From the NCBI GenBank assembly GCA_963921275.4, contig OZ001293.3, forward strand, positions 2,208,001 through 2,272,000: DNA of 64,000 nucleotides, given 5' to 3'. This DNA is from an uncultured Hormoscilla sp. (GTDB lineage Bacteria > Cyanobacteriota > Cyanobacteriia > Cyanobacteriales > Desertifilaceae). This document shows positions 1,841-57,872 of the stretch, in pieces (positions within the stretch are counted from its first letter, which is position 1; each line of letters opens with the position of its first letter). Under the pieces are notes generated by a model, which saw nothing but the letters and a program-made list of their open reading frames with translations, was not told the origin of the DNA and ran no database searches. Made by a program: the position numbers and the translations under genes.

Positions 1841-2711
1841 GTGCGATTCGTTCTAGCCTAACGTGGTCAAACACGGAACGCTAGCCCGGTTTCATTAGCC
1901 GGGAACTCTGACCGCATGGGGGTTAAATTCCCCTCCCCCCAGGTACGGGGGTGACACCGGTCCTCGGTGCTACGAAGCGACATCATCGTGGTGCTAAGCG
2001 AGGACTCAAATGTAGGATAACTGGCAGCCTAAGCCGGTGACGCCGCTAGGAAAGATATCCAAGGTTAGAGCAGGCAAACATGTGTGCAAGCCTCGTTATA
2101 AGGAACCAGCGAAATAAGGCTATATGCGCTGGCCTAAAAAGGAAATGGTAGCTAGTATTAGTTTTAGACTCTGGCTAATATAGTACTCAAATAGCTCCCG
2201 GGGTATAGTGTGGACCTAAAGGTATCGCGAAATGTTGTTAGGGAACGAAGTAACCTCTCGTGTGCTGTCCATCAGGACAAGTTAGATGTTAAGCGCAAGC
2301 CACGGGGGGAGGGATGGCCCAAGAAGCGAATGCCCGGGGTAATTCCTGGGATAACATCTACAGTAATGTAGATGATGCTGGGTAGCCAGCGCTGACGTGG
2401 GTCGGTGATACTAGGAAGCTGCTGGAATGAGTAATCCTAAAAAGCCACGGAACTAATCCGAAACGCAAGTGGAGGATAAGGTATGGATAACTGGTAAAAC
2501 TGACTTGAAAATGGTGATACTAACGGTTATCAGAACAACCACTCGCTAAACCAGGAAAGGGAAGAAAAGACAGGCGGCAAGGGCTAACGGAAGTAATTTC
2601 TATTAAGTCTACCTATGAAAAGGGCCTAGTACCCAGTAGCCGGATGCGGTGAAAATCGCAAGTCCGGTTCCTCAAGGGAGGGTCGGGAAGCGATTCCCGG
2701 CTCGACCCCAT
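1841..2711 (+). mobile_element. ORF-less group IIB intron (type B, copy 2, complete, 871 bp)
   Basis: Starts GTGCG, ends ACCCCAT; domains V/VI at ~2637-2711. Loop AGACTC (2166-2171) is complementary to the 5' exon end GAGTCT. No RT ORF. Confidence 0.92.
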
Positions 2712-2994
2712 CCACCTCTGACAGCCAATTCAACAAATCTGACTGATTGGTAATCTCAAAAATTCTATCTGTTAACTCTTCTAAATCCGACAGTGACAAA
2801 CTTGCAATTTTGCTGTTGATTTCCGCTGTCATTTCACCAAATTTATTTTTGAGCAGGCGCATTGCTAAAGCGCTTGCTTCAGCAATGCGTCCTCGTTCAA
2901 TCCCTTGTTCAATCCCTTGTTCAATCCCTCGTTTAAGTCCTTGTTCCCAGGCTTCTTCACTGGCATATTTCATCCGTCCTATCTCATCTTGCAA
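2712..2994 (-). pseudogene. Duplicated 3' end of the Rpn gene (C-terminal domain only)
   Basis: Near-identical to 437-755 but with three fewer 12-bp GIEQ repeats. Confidence 0.85.
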
Positions 2995-3250
2995 GGCTTC
3001 GGCGCACTGGGGATTAACAGCGATCGCCTGTTAGTAATGGTAGATCGCCCGTTCGGGATCGTCCTGGGCCAGAAAAGCGACAGCCAAATTATTGTGAGCA
3101 TTAGCATTATCAGGTACCAGAGCCAGGTATTGTTGATAAAGGGCGATGGTTTCTGGGATGCGATCGAGAGCACAAGTCAGGGAGGCAAATTGCAGCAAAG
3201 CTTTAGCATTGTTTGGCAAGCTGAATAATTTAGCGATAAAGAGATTCCTC
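2995..3250 (-). pseudogene. TPR-repeat gene fragment
   Basis: ETIALYQQYLALVPDNANAHNNLAVA TPR motif with an in-frame stop; truncated by the duplicated Rpn segment. Confidence 0.7.
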
Positions 3251-3387
3251 AGTGTCTTCCGCAAGCTCTTGTCCAGAAGGACACAGCTGGCGCCCCCAGC
3301 GTAGCGCCATCAGCAAGCACCAGACACCGCTTTGTCAACCGTTCCGCCTAGTGATAACTGGTAGCAACTTGCAATTTCTCGGCTAAT

Positions 3388-6300
3388 TCATCTTTTTTTT
3401 TCCGCAACAATCTCCTGCAATGCCTGTTTGATAGCAGCAAATACAAAGGACCAATCGCCCCGTTTTTGCTGGCGGAACAGGCCCATGGTAGGATACCAGG
3501 GAGAATCTGAGCGTTCCAACATCCAGCGCCAGTCAGGAGCAAAAGCAAGCAGCACCCATACAGGTTTTCCGAGAGCACCTGCTAAATGAGCAACTGCCGT
3601 ATCTACCGTGATGACTAGATCGAGTTGTTCGGTAATCGCAGCAGTGTCAGCAAAGTCATGGATATGTGGGTCCAGATTGACCAGATTGGGGATATCCTGG
3701 GTAATATCTGCCACCCGATCGCCCTTTTGGAGACTATAGAAAGAAACGTCATTCATTTGTAGGAGAGGCAGAAAATGAGATAAGCTCAGAGAACGATGGC
3801 GATCGGTCCTATTCATAGTACTGCCCGCCCAAACGATGCCCACCTTTAACTGCGACTCCGTTCGTAGTAAGCACTTTAGCGCTTCCGACTCAACAGTATG
3901 CAAATAGGGGACATGGTTAGGAATTGTATCTAAGGTAGTACCCAGAATGCGAGGTAAACTCATCAAGGGAGCTTGCAGATCCAGTGGGGGCAACGGTTCT
4001 CCTTTAACTACCAATTGATCGATCCCATCTAGGGTTTCAAAGAGACGAATCAGAGGTTGCTGACATTCGACAACGACGCGGCCAGGTTTGCGGGCCCGTA
4101 CCATGGGCAAATAGCGGATAAATTGCATAGCATCGCCAAAACCCTGTTCCCCTCGCAGCAAGATAGTTTTCCCGTCCAGGGGGCTACCATCCCAAACATT
4201 ATGCAGGTAATGTCCTAGGGAAAAACCTTTTTGATGCCAGCGCCATTCATATTCTACAAAGCCTCGGGGAAAATCTCCACTCAGCAAAAGCGCGATCGCC
4301 AGGTAGAGGTGGGCCTCGGGGTTTTGGGGTTGCAGGGCTAGGGCCTGCTGATAATGGCAGATCGCCTGGCTTAAATTCCCCCGTTCTCGCCATGCCAAAC
4401 CCAGGTTAACATGGGCTATGCGCTGCGCGCACGCTTCGCGGTCAGCATGGTTGGGTTTGAGAGATAGCAACTGCTGATAAACCTGAATCGCCTCATCGGT
4501 GCGGTCTTCCCGCATCAGGGCCATGCCCAGATTATTGTAAGCCTCAATGTAATCTGGCTTCAGGGCGATCGCCTTTTTATAGTAAGGTATAGCTTCAGCA
4601 GCCCTTTCCAGCTTCCAGAGGGCCGCACCCAAATTATTCTGAACTTGGGGATAGTTGGGATTCAATGCCAGGGCCTGACGATAATGGGCGATCGCCTCTT
4701 CTGCATTATCCATTTGATAAGCAACGACCCCCAGAAGCTGGCGAGCATCCACATTATGAGGTTGGGCCTGTAGAATTTGATGATAGATACTGCGTGCGGC
4801 TTCCAGGCGTCCCCCTTGTTGATGCTGCACCCCAGCGTGCAGCCGAGATGTAATCTCATCTGTGGTCAGTTGTTTGGGTAGGGGCACGGCATCGGTTAAT
4901 TTTTGGATTCTTGAGTTAATTGTTGCAGGTCGCCCCCTCTTAAAGAGTTCAACTGACCACTCGCCAGACCATGACAATAAAGCTGATTTAACTCGCGCAA
5001 ACAGTTCGGACCAATCGCCTGGTTGCTGTTGGCGGAACAGGCGCATAGTTGGATACCAAGGAGAATCTTCGCGTTCCAATCTCCAGCGCCAATCAGGACA
5101 ATAGCACAGCAGCACCCATACAGGTTTACCGAGGGCTCCGGCCAGGTGAGCAACCGAGGTATCTATAGTAATCACCAAATCAAGTTGCTGGACAATTGCT
5201 GCGGTATCGGCAAAATCCTTCAATAGGGGGTCCAGGTTCGCCAAATTGCCAATATCGGGAGTAATATCTGCCGTCCTGCTGCCCTTTTGGAGACTATAGA
5301 AAGCGATGCCGGGTATTTCCAACAGTTGCCGAAAATAGGACAGACTGGTAGAACGGCGGCGGTCATTTTTATGAAAAGGATTCCCGGCCCAGACTATTCC
5401 CACCTTTAATTGACCCGTTTGTAGTAAGCACTTTAGCGCTTCTTCTCCCGTTAGCGCTTCCGTAGCGCTGGGGACAGCTTTTACGTAAGGCACTCGAGTA
5501 GGAATAGTTTCCCAAGTCGTACCCAGGATGCGAGGCAAACTCAGCAAAGCAGCTTTCACGTCAAAGGAGGGCAACTCTTCGCCCTTGATGACCACTTTGT
5601 CGATGCCATCTACTGTCTGCAACAGACGATAGACTGCGGGCTTACACATGACTATTACTTTGACGTTAGCACCCTGGGCCCGGATCAAAGGAACGTAACG
5701 GATAAAATTAATTGTATCTCCAAATCCCTGTTCGGTGTAAAGTAAAATTGTTTTGCCATCCAGGGACTCGCCCTGCCAGTCAGGTTGAGTTAATCCCGGG
5801 CCCTGTATGTGTTTCAGTTGCCAGCGCCACTCGTACTCCGCTAAACCCCGAGGATAATCTCCAGCTAACATTAAAGTAATCGCTAAACCCATGTGCGCTT
5901 CGGCAAACTGGGGGTTTAAGTCGATCGCCCGTTCGTAGCTAGCAATACATTCCTGTAGCTGACATTTTCTGTGCAGGGCCACTGCCAAATTATGGTAAGC
6001 GTCGGTGAAATTGGGGTTCAGGGCGATCGCCTTGCGGGACATGGCTTCTGCTTCGTCCACTCGGTCCATTTCTTCGAGAACCAAACCCAGGTTACTATAA
6101 CCTATAGCATAGTTGGGATCCAAGGCGAGCGCCTGTTGCAAATGGGTTTTAGCTTCATCTAAGCGTCCCACATCCTTGAGTGCCATGCCCAAGTTGCTGC
6201 GGACCGAGGCCGAATTTGGTTCCATGCCGATCGCCCGCTCGTACATGGCGATCGCCTCTTCCAGCTTATTCTGTTCTTGGAAAATCGAGCCCAAACTGAC

Positions 6301-9300
6301 GATCGAATCCACGTAGTCCGGTTGAATACTTAGAGCCTTTTGATAGGAACTGGCCGCCTCATCAACTCTACCCAGATCCCGATAGACATTCCCCATATTA
6401 TTATGGACGTTGGCAGCATTTCTGTTAATTTGCAAAGCCTTTTCGTAGGTAGCGATCGCCTCTTGAGGGAGACCCTGCTGGCGGAGGACAACACCCAGAT
6501 TAATATAAGCTTCCAGCAAATCTGGCTTGAGATTAATTGCCCGCTGATAATGCTGAGTGGCCTCCGGAAGCTTGCCCTGTGCTTTCAGGGCCCTTCCCAG
6601 GCAGCGATGGGCTTCCGCGAAATCCGGTTCGATACTAATCGCTTTACTATAGCAGGCGATCGCTGCATCTAGCTTACTACTCTGCTGCGCTTTAATCCCT
6701 TGTTTTAGTAACTGGATTGCTGATTTTTCCGGCACGGTGTTAGTTACTGCTCTCGTTCTCTGGCTCCCGCCTGGGAACGCTGTTGGGGTTGGGGGCTTAA
6801 ATTGAGTGCCGAAACCTTTATTCTTTGCTTTTTGAGGCTTTGGACGCTTTTTCACAGCATTGAGTTCCTCCGTCGAACTTACGTCATTGACCAATTCTAA
6901 TAAACTGTCCCAGACTTGCTGAAAAACACCCTGCCAATCTCCAGGAGATGCTTGACGAAATAATCGCATCGTGCTATACCAAGGAGTCTCTTCTCCGGAC
7001 TGCATCCAGCGCCAGTCGGGTGCAAAAGGTAGCAGCACCCAAACGGGTTTGCCCAGGGCACCTGCTAAATGGGGAACCGCAGTATCTACTGAAATGACTA
7101 GGTCCAGTTGGGCGATCGCGCTAGCAGTATCGGCGAAGTCATTTAGCTGCGGACTGAGGTCGCGAATAGGAGTATCGGTGGCCTCAACTGCCCGGGTGCC
7201 TTTTTGCAAGCTATAGAAGACCAGACCCGGTATGCCAACGCCTGGAGCATGCTCTTGTCCTGAAGGACACGGCTGGCGCCGCGCTGCCGCGATCGGCATG
7301 CTCCAGGCGTTGCCCAGCAATTCCAGAAAATAGTTTAATCCGCAAGAACGGAGACGTTGAGGACTCTGAAGTCTTTTTTCGCCCCATTCACCTGCGGCCC
7401 AAACAATTCCGATGTTAATGGTTGACGGTTGATGGTTAATTGATGGGGGTTGTCTGGAACGAGATGCAGGTAAGGAATTTGGGCAGGAATTGTCTGGACA
7501 GTCGTACCGAGTATGCCTGGGAGACCCATCAAGGGGGCATGAACGTCAAATTCTACGGACTGATCAACTACAGATACTAGCTTACTGATACCGGGAATGG
7601 TGGAAAACAATCGCACTAAGGATGGTCCGCAGGCACAGACGATCGTGCGCGGATGCCGTTGGGCAACCAGGGGAACATAGCGAATAAATTGAATTGTATC
7701 TCCCAACCCTTGTTCTGCATGCAATAAAATGGTCAGTCCTGTCAGTTCCTCTTCTTTCCACAGGGGTTGCGGAAAAGCGGGCACCACGTTACCCGGCAGA
7801 TGCCAGCGCCAATGATATTCGGCAAATCCAGCTGTAAAATTGTTAGCGTAAAGTAAGGCCAGCGATCGGGCGAAATGTGCTTCGACATTTGACCGGTCGA
7901 TTTCCAGGGTTTTGCTGTAGGCCGCGATCGCCTCATCGGTACGGCGCAGCTCATACATAGCATGACCCATATTATTGTAAGCGTCGATATAGTCAGGTTT
8001 AATATTTAGAGCCCCTTGAAAGTAGCCGATCGCCTGTTCTGGTTTCCCCGTCTGCAGCAAGGCCACGCCGATATTATGGTAAGCATCAGCATAGTCGGGT
8101 CTTAGTTGCAAAGCCAACTCATACTGGGCGTGAGCCTGCTCGGGCTGACCATGTTGTTGTAATGTCACCCCCAGGTTAAAATAATCTTCTGCTGCTTCTA
8201 GGCGTCCCGCCTGGTGCATGTCTAAAGCAATTGCTAATTGTTGATTGTTAGGAACTAAAGACTGCAAGGCCGATTTTATTTGCACGAACACCCCTTGCCA
8301 ATCTCCTGGTTGACTCTGACGGAACAAACGCATAGTCGGATACCAGGGACTATCGGATCTATCTAGCATCCAGCGCCAGTCAGGAGCAAAAGGTAGCAGC
8401 ACCCAGACAGGTTTGCCCATCGCCCCGGCTAAATGGGCCACCGCTGTGTCTACGGAAATAACTAAATCCAGTTGGGCGATCGCATTTGCCGTATCTGCAA
8501 AATCACCCAATTGCTTGTGCAGAGATACTATTCTTTCTGAGGTTTGTAGTAAGCGCTTTAGCGCTTCGGAGGAAGGTTCTTTTTGCAGACTATATAAAGC
8601 AACCGATTTTTCCGGCACGGTGGGAATATCCAAAAGTTCCAGGAAAAGATCCAGGGAACAAGAACGGTAGCGAGTCAGATCGTGTAGATAGGAATCAGTA
8701 CTCGCCCAGACAAATTCCACTTTAATTGCAGCCTCATCCAGTCGATCCCCCCCGGCCCCCCTTAATAAGGGGGGAGTAAGAAGCCCGACCCGCATCTTCG
8801 GGGGTTGGGAGGGATCCTGCTGCCGTCGATCCGAGAAAGATATCAAAGGCCGCAAATAAGGTATTGAAGCGGGAATATTCTCTAGAGTCGTACACACAAT
8901 GCGAGGTAAACTCATCAAAGGAACCTGGACGTCAAACTCTGGTAATGGCGATTTTTCCGGAACGGTATCCTGACTTACCACTCGATCTATTCCCGGGACA
9001 GTGGCAAACAGTCGGACTAAGCATTCAGGACATTCTACAATTACTCGTCCCACCCGTTCTTTTACCAGAGGGGCGTAGCGGATAAACTGAATATTATCAC
9101 CCAGTCCTTGTTCCGTGTATATGAAAATAGTACCGCCTTCTAGATAGGAACCATCCCACAGAGGTTCTGCAAAATGACGGGGCGCTACTATGTCATCGTC
9201 CCAACGCCATTCATATTCATGCCAACCAGAGGGCAGATCGCCCTTTAATAGCCAGGTAAAGGCCCGGGCAAAATGCGTGCTAGCATCATTGGGTCTCAAC

Positions 9301-9911
9301 TCCAGGGATTTATTGTAATACCCGATCGCCTCTTCTAAACGTCCTTCCGTTTGCAAGACTAGGGCCATGTTATTGTGAACTTCTACGTAGTTGGGTTCGA
9401 TGGCCAGGGCCAGGTGGTATTGGGCGATCGCCTCGGCAATTTTACCCTGTTTTTTGAGGGTGTTCCCCAGACGATTATAGGCCCCTGCGTACTGCGGGTC
9501 GAGGGCGATCGCCCGCTGGTATTGGGCGATCGCCTCATCTAACCGCCCTAATGTTTTCAAGCAGTTGCCCCAGTTATTGTAAGCTTTAGGATAGTCTGGC
9601 TTCAGGGCGATCGCCTGTTTGTAGGCAGCGATCGCCTGTTCTATTTTTCCCTGTTCCCAGAAGCAAGCCCCCAAATTATTATAAGTCTCAGGCCAATCTT
9701 GCTTTATAGATATCACCTGTTGGAAATAGCCGAGCGATCGATCGTATTCCTTCGTCCGATAAGCAATAATTCCCAGCAGAAGCATAGCCTCTACCTGGTG
9801 AGGCTGCTGTTCTAGCATCGCCAAATAAACAGCCCTCGCTTTATCCAGACGTCCTGCTTGGTAGTGACTCAAAGCCTCTCTTAACCAATCGTTACCTGCT
9901 TGCTGTACCAT
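3388..9911 (-). pseudogene. Giant multi-module TPR + GT9-like glycosyltransferase gene (~2170 aa), split by one frameshift near 7414-7446
   Basis: Repeated TPR blocks and EQGxGDxIQFIRY / DFADTAA...[26 protein letters not shown]...DWRW modules. After the heptamer run, the other frame reads NIGIVWAAG...LELLG straight into the 3388-7320 ORF. Confidence 0.85.
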
Positions 9912-10307
9912 TTCACCTCCTAATCATAACAGACAAACCAACGTTAATTATAGCTTCAATTTCCAACTGTTTAATTTCTGATTCCCGGGATATTTTATTT
10001 TAACAGACCTGCATCTGGAAAAATTATTCCAGGAACAACAATTTCCTGGAATAATTTCTCTTCTAATTCTACATCTATGCTGCACCACCACAACAGGCCC
10101 AATGCCAAAAAGTGAGAAACTGCCAGTCCGATAGAGTTAACTCCTTTTCTTCTTATTCTCAACCCCGATCGCGTAGCGTGCGCGCAGCGCATTCGATGGA
10201 AATTACCTGAATTTTTGGTTGTTGCTCTAACAACTCACCCGCGGAGGCGCGATCCGGGAGGTTCTCCCGATACCGCCTTCGGCGCGCTCTTCGCTGTTAA
10301 TGCTGCT

Positions 10308-12062
10308 TTAACCTGGGCAAACACACTCGGCCAGTCTCCCAGTTTTGTTTGACGATCGGGGCCGCATCGTGGGATACCAAGGGCTATCCGATCGATCGAG
10401 CAACCAGCGCCAGTCAGGAGAAAAAGGTAACAGCACCCAGACAGGTTTTCCTAAAGCACCTGCTAGATGGGCAACTGCTGTATCTACAAAAATTACTAAG
10501 TCTAATTGTGAGATAACAGCAGCAGTATCAGCGAAGTCATGTAACAGCTCTCTTAAATCCTGTATAGGTGCCCCATCCAGAATATCTGTATGTTTTTTTT
10601 GCAAACTATAAAGAGAAATCCCTGGTATCTGCGACAGTTTCAGAAACAGGGAAACCGGACAAAACCGCGTCTTGCTAGCTCTATCACTAGGAGACCACAC
10701 AATGCCGACCTTTACGATGCCATCAGGATGTCGTGCCGTTCGTAGCAAGCCACTGTACTTGACGACGTCCTTCTCTTCAGCGTACAAATAGGGTATTCCA
10801 GCCGGAATAGTTTCTATAGTCGTATTCAGGATACGGGGGAGACTCATCAGGGGGACTTGCACGTCAAATGCTGGTAATGGTTCGCCTTTGACTACCACCT
10901 CCTGAACAAGGGAGACCGTAGTAAACAAGCGCCTGAGAGCCCGATATGTTTCCAGGATTACTTTACTAGCACCCCGCTGGGCTACTAAGGGCGCGTAACG
11001 GACGAACTGGATAGCGTCCCCGTGTCCCTGTTCTGTATGTAAAAGAATAGTTTTTCCTGCCAGTGGCGAACCATCCCAAAGGGGTTTTCCCAAGATTTGT
11101 TCCGGGGTCGGAGGCTGTGCTTTTAGGCGCCAGCGCCATTCATATTCTACAAATCCTTGCTGAAAGTCCTGCAATGATAACAAGCACGTTCCCAGACTTA
11201 CGTGGGTCTCTGCTTCATCTGGCTTTAAGGCAATAGCATGGCGGTAATAGCCCATCGCCTCTTGTAATTTCAGTTGTTCTTGCAGGGCAAGACCCAGGTT
11301 GTTGTAGACTGAGGCAAAGTCTGGTTTCAGGGCGATCGCCTTTTGGTGGCATGCGATCGCCTCTGCTAAGTTCCCCCATCTTTGATAGCAGTTACCCAAC
11401 TGATTATAAAATTCCGCCTGTTCTGGTTTAATGGCAATGGCTTTTTTATAATAAGCAATCGCCTCTTTTATGCGGTCATACTCTTCCATAATTCTAGCCA
11501 ATTTATAGTAAACTTCCGCACAGTTGACGTTAATGCTAATGATTTTTTCGTAGCAAACGATCGCCTGTTGGTAATGAGCGCTCGCCTCTTGATAACGCTT
11601 TTCCTCCTTCAGCATCGCCGCCGATTTTTCATGGGCCGCTCCACTCCGAATCAGCGGCACCACTTGCTGGTGCGTCTCGCGCATATCTAATCTTTTTCCC
11701 TGTTTTTCCAGGGCCATAACCAGGTTATCATAAGCATCAAAAAAATCAGGCTTCATTGCGATCGCCTGTTTGTAGGCAGCGATCGCCTGTTCTATTTTTC
11801 CCTGTTCCCAGAAGCAAGCCCCCAAATTATTATAAGTCTCAGGCCAATCTTGCTTTATAGATATCACCTGTTGGAAATAGCCGATCGCCCGATCGTATTC
11901 CCTCGTCCGATAAGCAATAATTCCCAGCAGAAGCATAGCCTCTACCTGGTGAGGCTGCTGTTCTAGCATCGCCAAATAAACAGCCCTCGCTTTATCCAGA
12001 CGTCCGGCTTGGTAGTGACCCAAAGCCTCTCTTAACCAATCATTATCCGCTTGCTGTACCAT
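10308..12062 (-). CDS. TPR + GT9-like glycosyltransferase; apparent frameshift in the last ~20 codons
   Basis: Same motifs. The N-terminal ~105 codons and upstream region are nearly identical to the gene starting at 9911. The C-terminus departs from consensus after SPWYPTMR. Confidence 0.85.
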   Translation of the reverse strand: [584 protein letters not shown]

Positions 12063-20225: not shown

Positions 20226-20450
20226 ATTTGATTTTTCCCTTGATTAAGATTATAACGCGATGTGCAACTTTCTACGGAAGAATAACGATTTGGTGGTCTT
20301 TGGCTGAAAATGTTGTTCTCAAAACTCCCTAAATCTCGTTAGTTGGAAAAATTCGCTTCATCCATCACGGGTGCGATCGCCTACCAGACCACCGACTCCT
20401 GGGTGATACTGGCGCTATTCGCACAAAAAGGGAGACACTGCGGATGTGAT

Positions 20451-20720
20451 ACGACTCTTCCGTACCCGAGTACGACTCCTCCGTACCCGAGCACGACTCC
20501 TCTGTGCCCGAGCACGACTTTTCTGTGCCCAAGCACGACTTTTCTGTGCCCAAGCACGACTCTTCCGTGCTTGAGCAAGACTCTTCCGTGCCCGAGCAAG
20601 ACTCTTCTGTGCTTGAGCAAGACTCTTCCGTGCTTGAGCAAGACTCTTCCGTGCCCGGGTACAACTCTTCCGTACCCGAGCACGACTCTTCCGTACCCGG
20701 GTACGACTCTTCCGTACCCC
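20451..20720. repeat. Tandem array of 13 x 21 bp (consensus ACGACTCTTCCGTGCCCGAGC)
   Basis: Exact 21-bp period from 20451 to 20703. Confidence 0.95.
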
Positions 20721-20909
20721 ATGTGGGTTCAAATACAGTTATAGCATATTTCTATCTCGATATCTGAGGAGGAATTCACGGTCGGTGCTGGCGCTGACAA
20801 ACAGCAGATTTGAGATAGGCCGCCAATTTTTGAGAAGAATCTGGTCAACAAGCATGTTGGATAATTATGGGGCAATATTCAATCAGCGATCGGGCAGTTA
20901 GGCTTGCTC

Positions 20910-21052
20910 TAATTAACAGCTAAACCACGTTCATGTCGGACCGGGTCCGAAACTATAACTATGTCTCTAGACAATTTGCGCGACTTATATCAACAAGTTA
21001 TTCTAGAATATATCAAGTTGCCTCGGCATAGGGGGAAAACAGGGCCGGTGCC
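20910..21052 (+). pseudogene. Degenerate copy of the sufU-like upstream region and 5' end
   Basis: GTTCATGTCGGACCGGGTCCGAAAC.ATAACTATGTCTCT...AATTTGCGCGAC...CAACAAGTTATTCTAGAA matches 34085-34210. Confidence 0.85.
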
Positions 21053-30860: not shown

Positions 30861-31224
30861 TTGTTTGTGAGAGAGATTTCCAAGACCCTTTTAGGCCACT
30901 CTAACTGAACCGATCTCGCGATCGCTGGCTTAACTGCCCTTATGTTTCGGGGTGCATCTTCTGTATTGTTTGTATTGTTAATTTCGGCGATCGGTGCCTT
31001 TCAGGAAAGGCACCGATCGCAGGAGCGAAAGCTGCTAGCTTTTGCCCAACAACGAGTCTAGGGCTAAAGTGAGATGCACCGGACACCTTGTTTCTAACTT
31101 CGATTATCATCGTATCACAGAGAATGTCTTTTTCTCAACCAACTACATATTTTTCTTATAGCAATTATCTATTTATATCATATACTAATTTCTATGGGTG
31201 ATTGCAGATGCCAAAGTGAGATGG

Positions 31225-32093
31225 ATGGGGTCGAGCCGGGAATCGCTTCCCGACCCTCCCTTGAGGAACCGGACTTGCGATTTTCACCGCATCCGGCTAC
31301 TGGGTACTAGGCCCTTTTCATAGGTAGACTTAATAGGAATTACTTCCGTTAGCCCTTGCCGCCTGTCTTTTCTTCCCTTTCCTGGTTTAGCGAGTGGTTG
31401 TTCTGATAACCGTTAGTATCACCATTTTCAAGTCAGTTTTACCAGTTATCCATACCTTATCCTCCACTTGCGTTTCGGATTAGTTCCGTGGCTTTTTAGG
31501 ATTACTCATTCCAGCAGCTTCCTAGTATCACCGACCCACGTCAGCGCTGGCTACCCAGCATCATCTACATTACTGTAGATGTTATCCCAGGAATTACCCC
31601 GGGCATTCGCTTCTTGGGCCATCCCTCCCCCCGTGGCTTGCGCTTAACATCTAACTTGTCCTGATGGACAGCACACGAGAGGTTACTTCGTTCCCTAACA
31701 ACATTTCGCGATACCTTTAGGTCCACACTATACCCCGGGAGCTATTTGAGTACTATATTAGCCAGAGTCTAAAACTAATACTAGCTACCATTTCCTTTTT
31801 AGGCCAGCGCATATAGCCTTATTTCGCTGGTTCCTTATAACGAGGCTTGCACATGTTTGCCTGCTCTAACCTTGGATATCTTTCCTAGCGGCGTCACCGG
31901 CTTAGGCTGCCAGTTATCCTACATTTGAGTCCTCGCTTAGCACCACGATGATGTCGCTTCGTAGCACCGAGGACCGGTGTCACCCCCGTACCTGGGGGGA
32001 GGGGAATTTAACCCCCATGCGGTCAGAGTTCCCGGCTAATGAAACCGGGCTAGCGTTCCGTGTTTGACCACGTTAGGCTAGAACGAATCGCAC
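31225..32093 (-). mobile_element. ORF-less group IIB intron (type B, copy 3, 869 bp)
   Basis: Reverse complement of 1841-2711. 5' exon ends GAGTGT; 3' exon begins CCA. Confidence 0.92.
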
Positions 32094-32320: not shown

Positions 32321-32879
32321 TCACTCAATTGACTTTGAAACACAAAGTCCCACAGAACTTGCTCTCACATTATTTGCTTGCGGCTTCCTCACACAGTCAG
32401 ATTACGAGATACTGGTAAAAGCAATTGCAATCTCAGACCGCGTGATAGAACAACAGGAGAAAGTAGCAGTTGCACAAAATTTTGCTGACCAAGCTTTTGA
32501 GGTGGTGCAGCGTCTTGTTCGCTTCCATTCCCAAGTATAGTAAGTTGGTCCCACGACACTGGGGAAGACCCAGATAAGGTTCTATCCTCTCGGGCCGCGC
32601 CACCAGGCAGCCCCCTATGCTAAATTAACACTAAGCCATGTTCATGTCGGACCGGGTCCGAAACGATAACTATGTCTCTGGGAAATTTGCGCGACCTCTA
32701 TCAACAAGTTATTCTAGAACATTACAAGAAGCCTCGGCATCGGGGTAAAACAGAACCGGTGCATCGGTCCCAGCGGGGACATAACCCCAGTTGCGGGGAT
32801 ACCATCGAGCTGACTCTGCAACTGAATGATGCACGCGATCGCATCTGTGATGTAAAATTCTCTGGGGAAGGCTGCGCGA
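32321..32879 (+). repeat. Near-exact 559-bp direct duplication of 33766-34324 (3' end of hypothetical gene, intergenic region, 5' part of sufU-like gene)
   Basis: Constant 1445-bp offset; accounts for ORFs 32295-32540 and 32672-32920. Confidence 0.95.
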
Positions 32880-33383: not shown

Positions 33384-33985
33384 CTACAGCATTATCAAAA
33401 TTGTCAGATCCTATGAGCGACGAAATTGCCGATCGCTATAGACAGCAAGGTTATCGAGTTTTAGTGAAGCCGCGCGTGGCTCCCTTGACTGAATTTATTT
33501 CCAGAGCGGATCTAGATTACATTATCCACGCGGAAAAATCAGCGGTGATTGTAGCCTTAAAACCTTCTGATATCCGGCCTGTAGTTAAAGATGAATCTGA
33601 TAGCGAGCAAATACCAACATTGTATGATTATCCGGTGAGAGATTTGACAGATATTTCCATATATCAGTCGAGAGCAGGGTATCTAATAGCAAAAGGAGAT
33701 TTTGATGCAGCTGTTTGTGGTGCTGTGTTTATAGCTAAAGTAGTGATGCGGATGATAGCAGAACATCACTCAATTGACTTTGAAACGCAAAGTCCCACAG
33801 AACTTGCTCTCACATTATTTGCTTGCGGCTTCCTCACACAGTCAGATTACGAGATACTGGTAAAAGCAATTGCAATCTCAGACCGCGTGATAGAACAACA
33901 GGAGAAAGTAGCAGTTGCACAAAATTTTGCTGACCAAGCTTTTGAGGTGGTGCAGCGTCTTGTTCGCTTCCATTCCCAAGTATAG
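33380..33985 (+). CDS. Hypothetical protein (restriction-endonuclease-like N-terminus, helical C-terminus), start overlapping the RusA-like stop
   Basis: IADRYRQQGYRVLVKP...D motif; ATGA overlap at 33380-33383. Confidence 0.55.
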   Translation: MTTALSKLSDPMSDEIADRYRQQGYRVLVKPRVAPLTEFISRADLDYIIHAEKSAVIVALKPSDIRPVVKDESDSEQIPTLYDYPVRDLTDISIYQSRAGYLIAKGDFDAAVCGAVFIAKVVMRMIAEHHSIDFETQSPTELALTLFACGFLTQSDYEILVKAIAISDRVIEQQEKVAVAQNFADQAFEVVQRLVRFHSQV

Positions 33986-34116
33986 TAAGTTGGTCCCACG
34001 ACACTGGGGAAGACCCAGATAAGGTTCTATCCTCTCGGGCCGCGCCACCAGGCAGCCCCCTATGCTAAATTAACACTAAGCCATGTTCATGTCGGACCGG
34101 GTCCGAAACGATAACT

Positions 34117-42726: not shown

Positions 42727-42919
42727 GGCTATACTCCGCGCGGTAATCGCACAAAAGACACAGCTCGAACCCGTTCCAGGCGGGAGCCTCTTAACGAGGG
42801 ATCCGGCTACGAGAACCGCCTGCTTCGATGTCTCCGGAGAGCGCTAGTCGCACTACTCCGGAGACATCGAGGGCTATATTACATGTCCGCAGAAGCTCAG
42901 ATGGCCTATGGGGGCATAT

Positions 42920-45900
42920 TGATCCCCCCCAGCAGGAGTATCAGGCCTTAAGGGCTCTCTATCAAAGCACCAATGGGGCTTCTTGGACGAACAATACAGG
43001 CTGGCGGGACTGGAATTTCAACAGCCAAACTCCCCCCGAAGCTTCTGTTGTTAATGGTTGGTTTGGGGTGACGGTAGATAGCGACAGGGTGACTGAGCTC
43101 CAGCTGAACGTCAACTTCCTGACTGGCAGCATCCCGACGGAGTTAGGGAATCTTTCCAATTTGGAGGATCTCTGGCTGGACTTCAACCAACTGACTGGCA
43201 GCATCCCGACGGAGTTAGGGAATCTTTCCAATTTGGAGGATCTCTGGCTGTTCTCCAACCAACTGACTGGCAGCATCCCGACGGAGTTAGGGAATCTTTC
43301 CAATTTGGAGGATCTCTGGCTGTTCTCCAACCAACTGACTGGCAGCATCCCGACGGAGTTAGGGAATCTTTCCAATTTGGAGGATCTCTGGCTGTTCTCC
43401 AACCAACTGACTGGCAGCATCCCGACGGAGTTAGGGAATCTTTCCAATTTGGCATCTCTCTACCTGGACTCCAACCAACTGACTGGCAGCATCCCCCAAG
43501 AGGTTCTAGATTTGAGTGCCTTCAAGCGGTTGGAAAACCCCCCTTATGTTTTAACCGAGATTTCCGACGTCCAACTCTTGCTAAGTAATAACCTCAACAT
43601 AGACATTAGCGCAAATTTCGGCGACATCAATAACAACATCGACAATTACACAGCTACCGGTTTACCAGGGGGCGTAACGATCAACAGTCGGGGAGTTATC
43701 AGCGGTACTCCTACTACCGCAGACATCTTTACCGTAACGGTAACTGCCACCGACGCTGCTGGGAACAGTTACTCAGAAGCCTTTACTATTAGCGTCAATG
43801 AGATCCTCCAGCAGGAGTATCAGGCTTTAAGGGCTCTCTATCAAAGCACTAATGGGGCTTTTTGGAGGAACAATACAGGCTGGCGGGACTGGAATTTCAA
43901 CAGCCAAACTCCCCCCAAAGCTTCTATTCTTAATGGTTGGTATGGAGTGACGGTAGTTAACAAGAGGGTGACGGAACTCTGGCTGCACTCCAACTTCCTG
44001 ATTCGCAGCATCCCGACGGAGTTAGGGAATCTTTCCAATTTGGAGGAACTCCGGCTGTCCAACAACTTCCTGACTGGCAGCATCCCGACGGAGTTAGGGA
44101 ATCTTTCCAATTTGGAGGATCTCTGGCTGGAGGAAAACCAACTGACTGGCAGCATCCCGACGGAGTTAGGGAATCTTTCCAATTTGGAGTCGCTCCGGCT
44201 GGACGACAACTTCCTGACTGGCAGCATCCCGACGGAGTTAGGGAATCTTTCCAATTTGGAGGATCTCTGGCTGAACTCCAACGAACTGACTGGCAGCATC
44301 CCGACGGAGTTAGGGAATCTTTCCAATTTGGAGTCGCTCCGGCTGGACGACAACTTCCTGACTGGCAGCATCCCGACGGAGTTAGGGAATCTTTCCAATT
44401 TGGAGTCGCTCCGGCTGTACTCCAACCAACTGACTGGCAGCATCCCGACGGAGTTAGGGAATCTTTCCAATTTGGCATCTCTCTACCTAAACTCCAACCA
44501 ACTGACTGGCAGCATCCCGACGGAGTTAGGGAATCTTTCCAATTTGGAGTTTCTCAATCTGAAATACAACCAACTGACTGGCAGCATCCCGACGGAGTTA
44601 GGGAATCTTTCCAATTTGGAGTTTCTCTGGCTGCGCTCCAACCAACTGACTGGCAGCATCCCGACGGAGTTAGGGAATCTTTCCAATTTGGCATCTCTCT
44701 GGCTGACCTCCAACCAACTGACTGGCAGCATCCCGACGGAGTTAGGGAATCTTTCCAATTTGGCATCTCTCGTGCTGACCTCCAACCAACTGACTGGCAG
44801 CATTCCGACGGAGTTAGGGAATCTTTCCAATTTGAGTCGTCTCCGGCTGAACAACAACCAACTGACTGGCAGCATCCCGACGGAGTTAGTCTTTCCCATT
44901 TGTGGACGTTCTACCTGAACAACAACCAACTGACTGGCAGCATCCCGACGGAGTTAGGGAATCTTTCCAATTTGGAGTTTCTCAATCTGAAATACAACCA
45001 ACTGACTGGCAGCATCCCGACGGAGTTAGGGAATCTTTCCAATTTGGAGTTTCTCTGGCTGCGCTCCAACGAACTGACTGGCAGCATCCCGACGGAGTTA
45101 GGGAATCTTTCCAATTTGGAGTTTCTCTGGCTGGAGGAAAACCAACTGACTGGCAGCATCCCGACGGAGGGAATCTTTCCAATTTGATTTGGCTCTGGCT
45201 GGAAGAGAACCAACTGACTGGCAGCATCCCGACGGAGTTAGGGAATCTTTCCCATTTGTCGCAGCTCTACCTGAACAACAACCTCCTGACTGGCACCATC
45301 CCCCAAGGGGTCTTAGATTTGTGGGCTGAAAAGCGGTTGGAAAACCCCCCTTATGTTTTAACCGAGATTCCCGACGTCGAACTCTTGCTAGGTAATAACC
45401 TCGACATAGACATTAGCGACAACTTCGGCGACATCAATAACAACATCAACAATTACACAGCTACCGGTTTACCAGGGGGCGTAACCACCAACAGTCAGGG
45501 AGTTATCAGCGGTACTCCTACTACCGCAGACACCTTTACCGTGACGGTAACCGCCATGGACGCAGTGAGCAATCAAGGGACAGATATCTTTGACATTGTT
45601 ATAGAGAACTCCCCTCCTACCGAGCGTAGCGAGCAACTCTACGAAAACGGGGGGAACGACTATCTCATCGGCAGATATGAAAACGACAGTCTCATCGGCG
45701 GATATGGAAAGGATACCCTCATCGGCGGATATGAAAACGATACTATCTACGGAGGAGGTGGGAACGACTCTCTCATCGGCGGACGTGGAAAAGATACCAT
45801 CTACGGAGAAGATGGGAACGACTCTCTCATCGGCGGACGTGGAAAAGATTACCTCTACGGAGGAGATGGGAACGACTCTCTCATCGGCGGACGTGGAAAA

Positions 45901-46203
45901 GATTACCTCTACGGAGGTGATGAGAACGACACCCTCATCGGTGGACGTGGAGACGATACCCTCGAAGGAGGGGAGGACGCCGATATTTTTGTTCTGAAGC
46001 AGGGCCATGGCCGGGATACCATTATAGACTTTGAAGATGGCACGGACTTGATTGGGCTAGCAGGAAGTTTGAGTTTCGAAGATTTGGCGATCGTCAGGAT
46101 AGGCCGAAATACCTCAATTAACTTTGAAGGGGAAACCCTTGCCACTTTGCAGGGGATTGATTCAACCCTGATTACTAGCGATGATTTCACTGTGGTTACT
46201 TGA
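42920..46203 (+). pseudogene. Secreted LRR protein (plant-type 24-aa LRRs, two Ig-like He_PIG domains, C-terminal RTX Ca-binding repeats) with two 4-bp deletions (~44889, ~45169)
   Basis: 72-bp repeats encoding LTGSIPTELGNLSNL; ATGLPGGVTINS.GVISGTP; GG.G.D.L.G nonamers and D.I.DF..G.D.I. Confidence 0.88.
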
Positions 46204-46425: not shown

Positions 46426-46453
46426 ATAATCCATATTTGTTAAAATTTTTTAA

Positions 46454-48883: not shown

Positions 48884-48899
48884 GATAGGAACGGAGGCA

Positions 48900-49568: not shown

Positions 49569-49597
49569 GGCGGGCGACAAGAGCTGCCCGAGACAAT

Positions 49598-50531: not shown

Positions 50532-50629
50532 CTGGGATCTAAGTATGAAGTCGTAAGCTGGTATCTCGGTGAAATTATCTTTTCCAGTATATCATGGCGG
50601 AGGTGGGCGGTGCCCACCCTACGAGTAAG

Positions 50630-51140: not shown

Positions 51141-51146
51141 TGATTA

Positions 51147-53556: not shown

Positions 53557-53753
53557 ATAGATTAATATTTATTATATTATATGTATGATTGTTAAGCTAA
53601 TGATACAAAAATTTAACCCACAAGGCTGTCGAGCGGGCTTCTGCCGAATTGGGCCCTTTGGCTCTTTTGTCTATAATCGGCTATGATTGATTTTATATGT
53701 CAATTTTCAATTTTCCTCGTTCCCTGGCTCCCGCCTGGGAACGTCAATTGCCT

Positions 53754-54575
53754 ATGATTTGGTTTTTTAAGCGCAAGTCCAAGAAACAAATAGCTCGGAT
53801 TGAAATTACCGGGGCGATCGCCGCTTCCACGAGGAAACAGGTACTAGAAGCGCTGGAGATGGTTGAGGAGAAAAAATTTCCGGCCTTACTGTTGCGGATA
53901 GACAGTCCAGGCGGTACAGTAGGAGATTGTCAAGAAATCTACAGCGCCCTGATGCGTCTGCGAGAGAAGGTGAAGATCGTCGCCAGTTTTGGCAATATCT
54001 CTGCTTCCGGAGGAGTCTACGTTGGTATGGGGGCTGAATATATCGTGGCCAATCCGGGCACAATCACCGGTAGCATAGGGGTGATTGTGCGGGGAAATAA
54101 TCTAGAGAGGCTGCTAGAAAAGATCGGCGTTCAATTCCAAACGATCAAATCTGGTCCCTATAAAGACATCTTGGCATTCGATCGGGAAATAACCTCCGCA
54201 GAACAGGATATACTGCAACAGTTAATCGATATTAGCTATCAACAATTTGTCGAAACAATAGCTTCGGCCCGCCAACTGGCAGTCGAAACAGTCAAAACTT
54301 TTGCCGACGGTCGGATTTTTACGGGTCAGCAAGCTTTAGAATTAGGGGTTGTGGACCGACTGGGCACGGAAGCGGACGCCCGGCAATGGGCAGCAGAACT
54401 GGCGGGGTTGGATCCTGTCAAAACTGAGTGCAATACGATCGAGGCACCAAAATCCTTCTGGAGTCGCTTGATATCAGGGGAGAGTAGGGTAAAATCTGAT
54501 CTGTCGGTGGCTATTGACTGGGTAGAGTGGGAAATGTCTACCAATGGTCTGGCTCTTTGGCTGTATCGACTCTAA
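53754..54575 (+). CDS. sppA: Signal peptide peptidase SppA (short form)
   Basis: RIDSPGG, SASGGVY, TITGSIGV, KSGPYKD, ADGRIFTG. Confidence 0.92.
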   Translation: MIWFFKRKSKKQIARIEITGAIAASTRKQVLEALEMVEEKKFPALLLRIDSPGGTVGDCQEIYSALMRLREKVKIVASFGNISASGGVYVGMGAEYIVANPGTITGSIGVIVRGNNLERLLEKIGVQFQTIKSGPYKDILAFDREITSAEQDILQQLIDISYQQFVETIASARQLAVETVKTFADGRIFTGQQALELGVVDRLGTEADARQWAAELAGLDPVKTECNTIEAPKSFWSRLISGESRVKSDLSVAIDWVEWEMSTNGLALWLYRL

Positions 54576-54593
54576 GAAGAGGAGGAGAAGCGC

Positions 54594-55055
54594 GTGGATT
54601 GGCGAGTGCGGGCGATTCGCGGGGCAATTACGGTCCCAGAAAATACTATCGAGGCAATCACTCTGGCAGTGACGGAACTACTAGATGAACTGGAAGGAAA
54701 AAATCGGATATTCCCAGACCAGATAATCAGCATGACTTTTTCGGTGACTCGCGATCTGGATGCGATTTTCCCGGCAGCGGTTGCCCGCTTGCGTCCCGGA
54801 TGGGACCAGGTGCCCCTACTGGACGTGCAGCACATGCATGTAGAGTCGGCATTATTACGCTGCATTCGCTTCCTACTTCACGTTAACATGCCAGCCGAGC
54901 AGGTGGTTTACCATCCCTATTTGCGCCACGCTCAAAAATTGCGACCGGATTGGCTAGAGGCACAATCAGTGTCCCTCGGGATCGCATCGTTCCCAGGCAG
55001 AGCCTGGGAACGCACTACCCGGGGGACGCCAACTCCTCATTTTAATCAATTGTAA
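54594..55055 (+). CDS. aroH: Chorismate mutase (AroH type); C-terminal tail derived from REP-like repeats
   Basis: RAIRGAIT, FSVTRDLDAIFPA, RCIRFL, HPYLRHA..LRPD. Confidence 0.9.
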   Translation: MDWRVRAIRGAITVPENTIEAITLAVTELLDELEGKNRIFPDQIISMTFSVTRDLDAIFPAAVARLRPGWDQVPLLDVQHMHVESALLRCIRFLLHVNMPAEQVVYHPYLRHAQKLRPDWLEAQSVSLGIASFPGRAWERTTRGTPTPHFNQL

Positions 55056-55079
55056 GGTGGGCATCGCCCACCCTACATG

Positions 55080-55964
55080 TTATTGTTTGGCCTGACCGTT
55101 CCAGCGAATGCCCAGAAAAATGTCGTACAGAAAGTTCCCCAAATCTTTTGCTTGCAGCAGTCCCAAGGTTTGATGACAGCCTTTAGCATCCAGTAGGGGC
55201 TTGACAGCCTGGTAGGCAGGCTGATATTTGTACCAGGGCATGGAGGGCCAGAGGTGATGAACCAGATGGTAATTCTGTCCGCCAATCAGCAGATTCAGCA
55301 TGGGACTGGGGTAAACTCTGGCATTCTTCCAGCGATCGCGTTCCTGAAAGGGACGATGGGGTAAATAATCGAAAAATAGCCCCAGGACCAGTCCCACCAC
55401 CCCAGCGGGGACAAACCAGAAGTTAAGAATATACCCGATAAAGCCGTAGTGACAAGCAAGCAAGACGATCGACGCTAGGAAAGCCCGACTCAAAAACCAT
55501 TCGAGTAACTCGTACTTACGCCACAGCCGACGCTGGAAGAAGTATACTTCATGGTAAAAGAATCTGGCGTTAATCAGCCAGAGGGGACCGCCAGTGGAGA
55601 CAAAATGATCTGGATCATTTTCAGGGTCGTTGACATGGGCATGATGATGTAGATGTACCCGGGTGAACACCGGAAAGGTAAAACCTAGCATCAGCGCACT
55701 GCCATGTCCTAAAATAGCATTCAGCACGCGGTTAGCATGAGCTACATGATGAGAGGCATCGTGAATTACGGTTCCCACCATGTGTAGGGCAACTACGTTC
55801 AAGCCAAAGCAGCACCAGTCTGGCCAATTCCAACGCCAGTAGCCGCAGGTGGAGAGCACTACCATTCCTACCGCTACCAGAAACATCAGTAAATTGAGAT
55901 TGAAGCCGCCAGTTGGACCGAGAAACTCTTTGGGAACCGTCAGGGGCTTGGTCGCCTCCGACAT
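55080..55964 (-). CDS. crtR: Beta-carotene hydroxylase
   Basis: His boxes HDASH, RVHLHHH, NYHLVHH; HFVSTGGPLWLI. Confidence 0.93.
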   Translation of the reverse strand: MSEATKPLTVPKEFLGPTGGFNLNLLMFLVAVGMVVLSTCGYWRWNWPDWCCFGLNVVALHMVGTVIHDASHHVAHANRVLNAILGHGSALMLGFTFPVFTRVHLHHHAHVNDPENDPDHFVSTGGPLWLINARFFYHEVYFFQRRLWRKYELLEWFLSRAFLASIVLLACHYGFIGYILNFWFVPAGVVGLVLGLFFDYLPHRPFQERDRWKNARVYPSPMLNLLIGGQNYHLVHHLWPSMPWYKYQPAYQAVKPLLDAKGCHQTLGLLQAKDLGNFLYDIFLGIRWNGQAKQ

Positions 55965-57003
55965 TATTTTATACTCCTGATGATGTATATTATTACTTGG
56001 GTAGTATAGGATATTCTTGATAAATTGTAAAGTTTTGTGATGTGAGCTGACAACATCTACAGCTGGCTGCGGTTCGCCCGTGGTTATACGGCCGTCAGCT
56101 TAAATCACCAATTAATATCATGTCGGGTTGAATGCACCTGATTAAGCGGCCTTGATTTTTGGCCACCAATGATATAAGGTCAACCCCTCAATTAACTCTT
56201 GCTGTTGGAGTAATTGGCGACATCGCTCAACCGGTGTCTTCCACCTCATCAATGCTATTAAACGCTTTGTTGGCTAAAGGTTCATCGATTAATGGCCATA
56301 ACCGCTCAGCTGGTTGCAACTCTGGTGAATAGGGGGGCAGGGGGAACAGGTGAATCCCTTCAGGCACCTGGAGCTTTTCCGTCATATGCTAGCTAGCCTG
56401 GTGGAGAGGGAGAATTACCCGTTTATCTTTGCCAACTTGGAAATGATAGGCAAAGTCTTCGAGCACCGCAGCGAATAGCTGGCTATTCACCTCGGGAAGA
56501 AGCCACCAGTATCTCCTGTTTGGGGTTGGACAAAACCGTACAACCACAACCATTCCCGTTTCCAGTTGACCTTGGCAATCGGCACTGAGAGTGCTTCTAC
56601 CCAGACAGGGCGAGTCACTGGCTGCAATCCGATGGGATGTTCATCTTCTGCCCAAATCTCGACGGTAGCTTCGGAATTGACTGTTGAATCCGTTCCACCT
56701 CTACGAGCAGTTTTTTTTGCCATTCAGACTGAACTTCCTCTACCGCCTCAATATGCTCAGGACGCGGCACTCTTAAACGAAACCCCATCGGCTTAAGATC
56801 TACCCACCCTTGTTGCCAGCTAATACAGATACCAAAGGCATCCCTCAAGTAGTCACAGACAGAGGCGCCCATTCCAAAGACCTCCATCGGGGGCGAGCCC
56901 ACAGCAATTGGGCCTGTTGTATATCATCGAGTTTCGAGTGCGATTCGTTCTAGCCTAACGTGGTCAAACACGGAACGCTGGTCTAGGAAACTAGAAACTC
57001 TGG

Positions 57004-57872
57004 ATGGGGTCGAGCCGGGAATCGCTTCCCGACCCTCCCTTGAGGAACCGGACTTGCGATTTTCACCGCATCCGGCTACTGGGTACTAGGCCCTTTTCAT
57101 AGGTAGACTTAATAGGAATTACTTCCGTTAGCCCTTGCCGCCTATCTTTTCTTCCCTTTCCTGGTTTAGCGAGTGGTTGTTCTGATAACCGTTAGTATCA
57201 CCATTTTCAAGTCAGTTTTACCAGTTATCCATACCTTATCCTCCACTTGCGTTTCGGATTAGTTCCGTGGCTTTTTAGGATTACTCATTCCAGCAGCTTC
57301 CTAGTATCACCGACCCACGTCAGCGCTGGCTACCCAGCATCATCTACATTACTGTAGATGTTATCCCAGGAATTACCCCGGGCATTCGCTTCTTGGGCCA
57401 TCCCTCCCCCCGTGGCTTGCGCTTAACATCTAACTTGTCCTGATGGACAGCACACGAGAGGTTACTTCGTTCCCTAACAACATTTCGCGATACCTTTAGG
57501 TCCACACTATACCCCGGGAGCTATTTGAGTACTATATTAGCCAGAGTCTAAAACTAATACTAGCTACCATTTCCTTTTTAGGCCAGCGCATATAGCCTTA
57601 TTTCGCTGGTTCCTTATAACGAGGCTTGCACATGTTTGCCTGCTCTAACCTTGGATATCTTTCCTAGCGGCGTCACCGGCTTAGGCTGCCAGTTATCCTA
57701 CATTTGAGTCCTCGCTTAGCACCACGATGATGTCGCTTCGTAGCACCGAGGACCGGTGTCACCCCCGTACCTGGGGGGAGGGGAATTTAACCCCCATGCG
57801 GTCAGAGTTCCCGGCTAATGAAACCGGGCTAGCGTTCCGTGTTTGACCACGTTAGGCTAGAACGAATCGCAC
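57004..57872 (-). mobile_element. ORF-less group IIB intron (type B, copy 4, 869 bp), inserted antisense into intron A
   Basis: Near-identical to 31225-32093; 3' exon again begins CCA. Confidence 0.92.

Follow-up and report, generated by a model that had tools for sequence, protein, structure and literature searches.

How does an intron that encodes no protein of its own come to lie at many places of one bacterial chromosome? Group II introns of bacteria are usually few, lie outside genes and carry their own reverse transcriptase (RT). The question is raised by a 64,000-nucleotide (nt) stretch of DNA from an uncultured Hormoscilla sp., a cyanobacterium (the window; C1:2208001-2272000 of a 7.03-Mb assembly, C1 being its 6.9-Mb contig), in which one repeat occurs four times. 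This repeat is, with high probability, an 871-nt non-autonomous group II intron of IIB-type design that lacks an open reading frame (ORF) and has recently multiplied in the cyanobacterial chromosome by retromobility. The analysis establishes its anatomy and copy number, the precision of its ends, the target logo, the covariation and the recency of the spread. The copies in the window are listed below, with differences counted against the consensus of 139 full-length copies from the whole genome.

1-438, plus strand: 5'-truncated copy, from intron position 396 to the 3' end, beginning 40 nt before the window
1841-2713, plus strand: copy A, 873 nt, consisting of the 871-nt unit with a private TG insertion and one C>T change (3 differences)
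31223-32093, minus strand: copy B, 871 nt, in AT-rich DNA (0 differences)
57002-57872, minus strand: copy C, antisense in domain I of an older group II intron (1 difference)

Anatomy and ends of the intron

A preliminary description of the window, made from its sequence, had reported four near-identical copies of an ORF-less group II intron. This holds for copies A, B and C, whereas the copy that it placed at 1-436 is truncated and stems from DNA duplication. Inverted and direct repeat pairs between the four copies are 100% matched over 246-636 nt, and all four match the Rfam model of domains V and VI (RF00029) with 44.4 bits, the gathering score being 40. The 5' end agrees with GUGYG, reading GTGCGA in 138 of the 139 full-length copies and GTGTGA in the remaining one. 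The longest ORF within the intron (copy B) has 53 amino acids (aa), and a blastx comparison with the genome's own RT proteins revealed no sense-strand ORF remnant, including in domain IV, in agreement with the earlier statement that no RT is encoded. The 3' part of the intron, in the coordinates of copy A, is organized as follows.

2638-2713, plus strand: domains V and VI and tail; domain V (2638-2669) starts with the AGC triad, the bulged A is at 2705 and the 3' tail reads CCCCATCC

An alignment of 18 related families from the genome contains 178 predicted pairs, 74 of them with compensatory changes; domain V was mis-paired by RNAalifold. The single-sequence fold of the intron has z = -2.88. 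Class assignment by the Rfam models of domains I-IV was rejected, since the sole match, RF01999, scored 22 bits and is below the gathering score of 36. A HIP1-like motif, GCGATCGC, occurs in the sequence and, taken with the gene content, points to a cyanobacterium.

The preliminary description had assigned the element precise GTGCG...AT ends and a shared 3' exon starting with CCA. Neither statement survives comparison with empty sites: the CC is the intron's own 3' end, the mobile unit is GTGCG...CCCCATCC with a length of 871 nt, and the first base of the 3' exon is A, not C. CC directly follows the ...AT end in 138 of 139 copies. An ungapped empty-site paralogue without CC exists for 27 of the 103 unique sites and one with CC for none of them. 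More broadly, a paralogue match spans the junction at 57 of 139 sites, and among the matches listed the alignments have a 2-nt gap at or beside CC, with a larger gap there in one. The same boundary can be read where the intron has inserted into itself: the uninterrupted intron reads AAGTCT-ACCTATG, and the interrupted one has AAGTCT, then GTGCG...CCCCATCC, then ACCTATG. The unit length of 871 also follows from the head-to-tail junctions of tandem arrays and from contig joints in two public sequencing runs (X4 and X5) at which the sequence 'goes back 871'. Empty paralogues differ from occupied sites by exactly this unit and no bases are duplicated, that is, target duplication is absent. Because CC belongs to the intron, as the empty-site paralogues indicate, the coordinates of copies A, B and C are corrected to 1841-2713, 31223-32093 and 57002-57872. 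Group II introns usually end in AY and have the branch A 7-8 nt from the end. In this family the empty sites put the end at ...ACCCCAUCC, and the bulged A of domain VI is nine nucleotides away from it. Related families in the genome end CCCC+GACT or CCCC+TAAT and thus have the same 3' geometry.

Copy number, recency and target recognition

A blastn search of the genome with copy A as the query returned 560 high-scoring segment pairs, every one on C1. With a cut-off of full length and at least 97% identity, there are 139 full-length copies (64 on the plus and 75 on the minus strand), which fall into 105 clusters of distinct flanks, and 24 more copies are partial at the same identity. As many as 61 of the 139 are equal to the consensus, and the mean of 1.24 differing positions corresponds to a divergence of 0.14%. 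Judging from this consensus identity and low divergence, the spread of the 871-nt family is recent, and the recent burst proposed in the preliminary description is thereby confirmed on the scale of the genome. Among 40 relatives searched, related introns were found in the same genus only; among the candidates scored, the closest copies in four other species of the genus are 91-93% identical, the best matches belonging to one sister species. The family is part of a larger intron load. A profile of domains V-VI built from the 18 families gave 443 matches at E <= 1e-3, of which 381 are near full length, a strict domain V motif gave 306 matches, and RF00029 at least 151 among the matches listed (150 of 867 candidates scored).

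The copies are not evenly distributed between the strands along the chromosome. In part of the 2.2-4.5 Mb region the 871-nt family is biased towards the minus strand, and in the first 700 kb it has 13 plus-strand copies to 1 minus-strand copy. In a second ORF-less family (e.g. C1:14200-15034), 51 copies are on the plus and 21 on the minus strand; from 2.2 to 4.5 Mb almost every copy is a plus-strand one. Replication-strand bias was considered and rejected: only a weak GC skew exists, and the sign of the local skew is unrelated to intron orientation (35/27 against 24/17).

X5 and X6, the two runs examined out of 16 from other studies with other organism labels, contain the intron with 0-1 mismatches, and its flanks there are divergent or missing. 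A first reading of these runs as spread of the intron between organisms was dropped, since a low-abundance relative, whose 140-copy repeat alone is deep enough to assemble, explains the data equally well. In run X5, in which the flanks are shallow, a 901-nt contig joins the 3' end of the intron to its 5' end (the joint that goes back 871, with 197 letters on the shorter side). Tandem genomic copies such as those at C1:5447656-5450268 and C1:824934-826675 may explain this joint, or it may derive from free full-length circles.

The target logo was built from the 103 unique sites using the corrected 3' boundary. It consists of AACCTT, a three-base gap, GAGTCT, the cut and A, or, written whole, AACCTTnnnGAGTCT with the cut before A. 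The informative positions are the following.

-15: A, 74 of 103
-13: C, 68 of 103
-12: C, 59 of 103
-11: T, 70 of 103
-10: T, 62 of 103
-9: A, 62 of 103
-6: G, 92 of 103
-5: A or G, 64 and 35 of 103
-4: G, 76 of 103
-3: T, 80 of 103
-2: C or T, 74 and 24 of 103
-1: T, 91 of 103
+1: A, 80 of 103

No information is present in the logo of the 103 sites beyond +1 or further out. Two loops of the intron are complementary to this logo as exon-binding sites (EBS) that pair with intron-binding sites (IBS) in the 5' exon, given here in the coordinates of copy A.

2166-2171, plus strand: EBS1 AGACTC, a hairpin loop of domain I, pairing with IBS1 GAGTCT at -6 to -1
2061-2066, plus strand: candidate EBS2 AAGGTT, pairing with IBS2 AACCTT at -15 to -10; the register is provisional

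The loop AGACTC had already been matched to the 5' exons of the window copies, and its complementarity to GAGTCT is borne out by the 103-site logo. The two-base alternatives fall precisely opposite a U or a G of the EBS, the behaviour expected of wobble pairing. IBS1-EBS1 pairing involves on average 5.2 of 6 positions at the sites compared with 2.0 at random genome positions, and pairing with the EBS2 candidate 4.2 of 6 compared with 2.5. The A at +1 is found at 80 of 103 sites in this family and at 51 of 56 in the second family, and the putative EBS3-IBS3 contact is read only from the exon side. The EBS2a-IBS2a pair that is described for IIB introns (PMC8643678) could not be placed in the 871-nt intron. 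Furthermore, the full strict consensus motif is not matched anywhere in the genome, whether at occupied or at empty sites, and its wobble-tolerant version fits only 3 of 103 sites. Therefore, every insertion is 'ectopic', which supports the relaxed targeting suggested in the preliminary description.

Other ORF-less families of the genome display corresponding changes in loop and target. The second family is 835 nt long and has 72 copies at >=95% identity at 56 distinct sites. Its target is AGTG(C/T)A, the cut and A, and its homologous loop is TGCACT, the exact complement of the IBS1 AGTGCA, although the EBS2 register is ambiguous. In a 757-nt intron located in the window next to copy C, the loop GGGAAT (58213-58218) is complementary to the 5' exon ATTCCC. 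Over the 18 families, the stem of the EBS1 hairpin covaries (one pair is AU in 8 families and GC in 8), and the loop is hypervariable.

Interrupted genes and nested introns

The intron was removed in silico at the 103 unique sites and ORFs were sought across the healed junctions. By a crude ORF criterion, 37 insertions are sense, 26 are antisense, 35 lie at sites without a long ORF and 5 are ambiguous. A Pfam scan of the longer exon part in the 38 cases with an ORF of >=250 aa detected domains in 28. Sense insertions are found in genes for RibD (codon 357 of 377), BicA (568 of 587), QueG (262 of 283), an MscS-like channel, two Ddl-like paralogues, RHS and EndoU proteins and an intron RT. Antisense insertions affect genes for a SpoIIE phosphatase, a Ser/Thr kinase, GAF and Hpt proteins, a solute-binding protein, a cadherin/LRR protein, TPR proteins, Rpn and intron RTs, one RT-gene site accounting for 11 copies. 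The element thus does interrupt real genes in an orientation that bars splicing, and many of the surviving insertions are near gene ends. The two interrupted Ddl-like genes encode proteins that are 88% identical and carry introns that are >99.5% identical at the same site, a pattern that, as read from these identities, fits independent homing. True ddl is intact elsewhere in the genome, both interrupted genes being its paralogues. An attempt to infer in vivo splicing from essential host genes was set aside: the Ddl-like genes are paralogues of an intact ddl, and RibD and BicA are hit after their conserved domains.

Within the window, the interrupted gene is of the Rpn type.

439-1436, minus strand: Rpn-family gene (PDDEXK_2 and DUF4351 domains), with the intron antisense four codons before the natural stop
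2714-2994, minus strand: C-terminal fragment of a second Rpn copy, which supplies the same target site for copy A

The domains and the minus-strand orientation of the host agree with the antisense insertion noted earlier. The healed C-terminus of the Rpn gene reads ...SEVDSL followed by the stop, and with the intron the frame continues to position 351. For copy A, antisense in the 3' end of an Rpn-type gene, three residues are replaced by a 29-residue tail, a change that is hardly inactivating. The idea of an insertional mutagen holds for some antisense insertions in real genes, but the Rpn example lies only four codons before the stop. The 107 nt upstream of copy A (1712-1818) are 65-75% similar to a segment repeated in three large minus-strand TPR/glycosyltransferase-9 genes (3388-12062), so that a piece of a gene of this type may lie 5' of copy A. 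No long ORF extends across the healed site of copy B. Beside this copy, a direct repeat of 300 nt (the reference length of the tool) at 32321-32620 and 33766-34065 has 100% identity at a distance of 1445 nt, and a third, partial copy of it is at 20909-21051 (85%).

Copy C is part of a nested structure that, together with a fifth RF00029 match, was absent from the preliminary description.

56938-59319, plus strand: outer degenerate group II intron in three pieces (56938-57001, 57873-57896 and 58654-59319), split by copy C and the inner intron
57897-58653, plus strand: inner ORF-less intron of 757 nt, from a related family ~79-80% identical to the 871-nt family, inserted sense and forming a twintron

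The fifth match belongs to the inner intron (58575-58653, 43.9 bits). Domain V of the outer intron is broken and has no RF00029 match. Paralogues of the whole nest are present at C1:6622022 (94.4%) and C1:4581338 (93.8%). Moreover, an uninterrupted paralogue at C1:1540259 reads AACTCT-AGTACTCATGGGGG, confirming both the insertion point of copy C and its imperfect IBS1, GAGTACT.

The 871-nt intron has also inserted sense into itself, after position 770 (AAGTCT, cut, ACCT), at five loci on C1.

C1:1325884-1327623: homotypic twintron
C1:4741854-4743593: homotypic twintron
C1:5180205-5181944: homotypic twintron
C1:6029576-6031315: homotypic twintron
C1:6410258-6411996: homotypic twintron

These loci reflect either movement of the whole twintron or repeated insertion at a single internal site. 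One further copy, C1:3454542-3455513, has the 5' flank of the site at C1:1028774 and, as its 3' flank, the last 101 nt of an outer intron, an arrangement shared with the self-inserted twintrons; ectopic recombination between intron copies seems to have produced it.

Repeats of other kinds were also recorded. At 42828-46203 of the window, two adjoining ORFs (696 and 433 aa) are made of 72-nt and 27-nt tandem-repeat arrays, a 300-nt reference recurring there in 22 registers at 72-nt spacing and in 9 at 27-nt spacing. At 20343-20767, at least 12 copies of a 21-nt tandem repeat are open in several frames. Elsewhere in the assembly, a contig of 31,420 nt (C3) has a G+C content of 17.6%, compared with 47.4% for the chromosome, and may be foreign or a contaminant.

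Mobilisation, rival explanations and significance

The genome is rich in candidate sources of a mobility protein. PF00078 has 93 matches in it, 16 of 60 RT frames examined are >=560 aa long, and RVT_N, RVT_1, GIIM and HNH domains are present in all six full-length RT frames scanned. ORF-less introns of Thermosynechococcus elongatus are described as being mobilised in trans by 'driver' proteins (Mohr, Ghanem and Lambowitz 2010, PMC2882425), and, by analogy with that system, mobilisation in trans by a driver would be the best-supported model for the 871-nt intron. In this model, a copy of the intron would be transcribed, and its RNA would be folded and excised with the help of an RT/maturase encoded elsewhere. 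The RNA would then reverse-splice into DNA that pairs well enough with EBS2 (AAGGUU), EBS1 (AGACUC) and the base reading the A at +1, and the inserted RNA would be copied into DNA. Since the pairing tolerates wobble and one or two mismatches, the element lands at many ectopic sites. Its insertions have both orientations with respect to genes and are also seen within other introns, within intron RT genes and beside or within copies of the intron itself. Transcription and splicing of the intron, as well as the identity of, or even the need for, a trans-acting protein, are what we infer here.

Several observations weigh against retromobility of this kind. None of the three approaches used to identify the driver succeeded: blastn against the 16 full-length RT loci found no closely related RT-encoding intron, blastx yielded no remnant of an ORF within domain IV, and domain IV, aligned locally with the 16 RT start-codon regions and assessed with shuffles, showed no similarity to them (z <= 1.5). 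The RT-encoding relative with matching domain IVa that the preliminary description had envisaged is thus not among these 16 loci. The alignable ribozyme parts of the 16 RT introns are short and 67-78% identical, reaching 83-89% only over 35-53 nt. In addition, the intron has a non-canonical 3' terminus (...AUCC, the bulged A being nine nt away), departing from the expected AY and spacing of 7-8 nt. The copy at 1-438 arose by DNA duplication, not by retromobility, and some multi-copy flank clusters lie within other repeats (the 11 copies in one intron RT gene; two clusters of 6) and could have been carried passively. Finally, a sense insertion in a gene is no proof of splicing; RibD and BicA are interrupted near their ends, and the Ddl-like genes are paralogues of an intact ddl.

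If DNA-level processes (duplication of segments, recombination or hitch-hiking in other repeats), rather than reverse splicing, had been the main means of spread, shared flanks would be unsurprising, and some are indeed seen. The copy at 1-438 is an arm of a 1.86-kb tandem duplication (intron 3' part and Rpn gene, 97.4% identity), 34 of the 139 copies share flanks with another, including the 11 in one intron RT gene and the five twintron loci, and the recombinant at C1:3454542 combines one site's 5' flank with the 3' part of an outer intron. However, the ends are base-precise in 105 distinct flank contexts, long flank homology is not seen in most, empty paralogues differ by exactly the 871-nt unit, and duplication does not predict a flank logo that is complementary to two intron loops and covaries with them between families. 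As the main route, spread as DNA is already refuted and we regard it as highly improbable. An artefact of assembly or collapse deserves practically no credence: nothing specific speaks for it beyond the general difficulty of assembling high-copy repeats. In public runs X3 and X4, which bear the same organism label, the k-mer depth of the intron compared with its flank is ~6000 against 52 and ~5000 against 104, respectively (~45-115x), and contigs of both runs bridge the flank-intron junction of copy B at 31223; the copy number therefore does not stem from assembly. The 139 copies also have 105 different, unique flank contexts within a 6.9-Mb contig, which argues in the same direction. In sum, none of the findings that the preliminary description had named as contradicting it, namely long shared flanks, ragged ends, lack of complementarity to AGACTC or an artefact, applies genome-wide.

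A different possibility concerns the protein. The intron might move without the protein of a related intron, through self-catalysed reverse splicing combined with a free-standing or unrelated host RT or maturase. This would accord with the failure to find a related RT-encoding parent, an ORF remnant or a shared domain IVa in the genome, and with a target logo that has no positions outside the RNA-paired ones. Yet group II introns need a maturase/RT for efficient splicing and complementary DNA (cDNA) synthesis in vivo. Moreover, many open genes combining RT, X and HNH domains exist in this genome, and the drivers of T. elongatus are described as mobilising diverged ORF-less introns (PMC2882425). 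We consider movement of this sort quite improbable and retain mobilisation in trans by a driver protein as the model.

The kind and life-style of the element are already known, T. elongatus having ORF-less introns, twintrons and drivers. The report on that species describes 28 introns, of which 17 lack an ORF; remnants of ORFs are visible, close relatives that encode an RT exist, and few introns are inside genes (PMC2882425). As with the TeI3 introns of that report, the ORF-less introns of a cyanobacterium here outnumber RT-encoding ones and insert into introns, forming twintrons, and into mobile elements. Unlike in T. elongatus as described there, a single family reaches 139 copies, with neither an ORF remnant nor a close RT-encoding relative, and many insertions are in ordinary genes and in both orientations; a further difference is the HNH domain carried by the RTs scanned here. 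A large intron load in which chloroplast-like types dominate and some ORF-less introns have increased is likewise described for Arthrospira platensis and other filamentous cyanobacteria (Miura et al. 2022, PMC8919778). The 101 introns of A. platensis are the published maximum that we found, by the pipeline of that paper, compared with ~380-440 intron 3' ends here, the comparison being approximate since the methods differ. Trichodesmium erythraeum is described as having ORF-less dnaN introns and a twintron, with splicing helped by the RT of a related intron (PMC12584367, PMC4649490). It resembles the present cyanobacterium in its ORF-less introns and intron-in-intron structures, but has a handful of sense insertions in housekeeping genes, as those reports describe them, in contrast to ~140 dispersed copies here, many of them antisense or intergenic. 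In life-style only, the element is like MITEs (miniature inverted-repeat transposable elements), the non-autonomous DNA transposons, in being short, protein-less, present in high copy number and dependent on an enzyme encoded elsewhere. Unlike MITEs, its ends, GTGCG...CCCCATCC, are not inverted repeats, it makes no target-site duplication, and it has a ribozyme core and is targeted by RNA pairing.

What sets the present case apart is its scale, the absence of any recognisable parent, a 3' end that is shifted, and the many ordinary genes that carry insertions, in both orientations. In the papers returned by the literature search, hundreds of ORF-less intron copies in a cyanobacterium are not described. 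We raise, tentatively and with more doubt than confidence, the possibility that, among bacteria, this chromosome carries the largest and the most recent expansion seen so far of a group II intron that lacks a protein, an expansion that has no close RT-encoding parent and reaches ordinary genes in both orientations. If true, the genome would exemplify, in a living organism, the state of 'intron invasion' proposed for early eukaryotes, the driver being a general splicing and mobility protein acting on diverged ribozymes.

The genome shows a stripped-down ribozyme beyond the usual limits of bacterial group II introns, with hundreds of copies, nested and tandem introns and antisense hits in genes. 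Its approximately 100 independent insertions constitute a natural map of the tolerance of an RNA guide, and the target logo could inform the design of compact retargetable introns. The organism thereby offers a system for asking which protein drives a diverged ORF-less intron and how the host tolerates such a load, both of which bear on the origin of spliceosomal introns and of a common splicing machinery.

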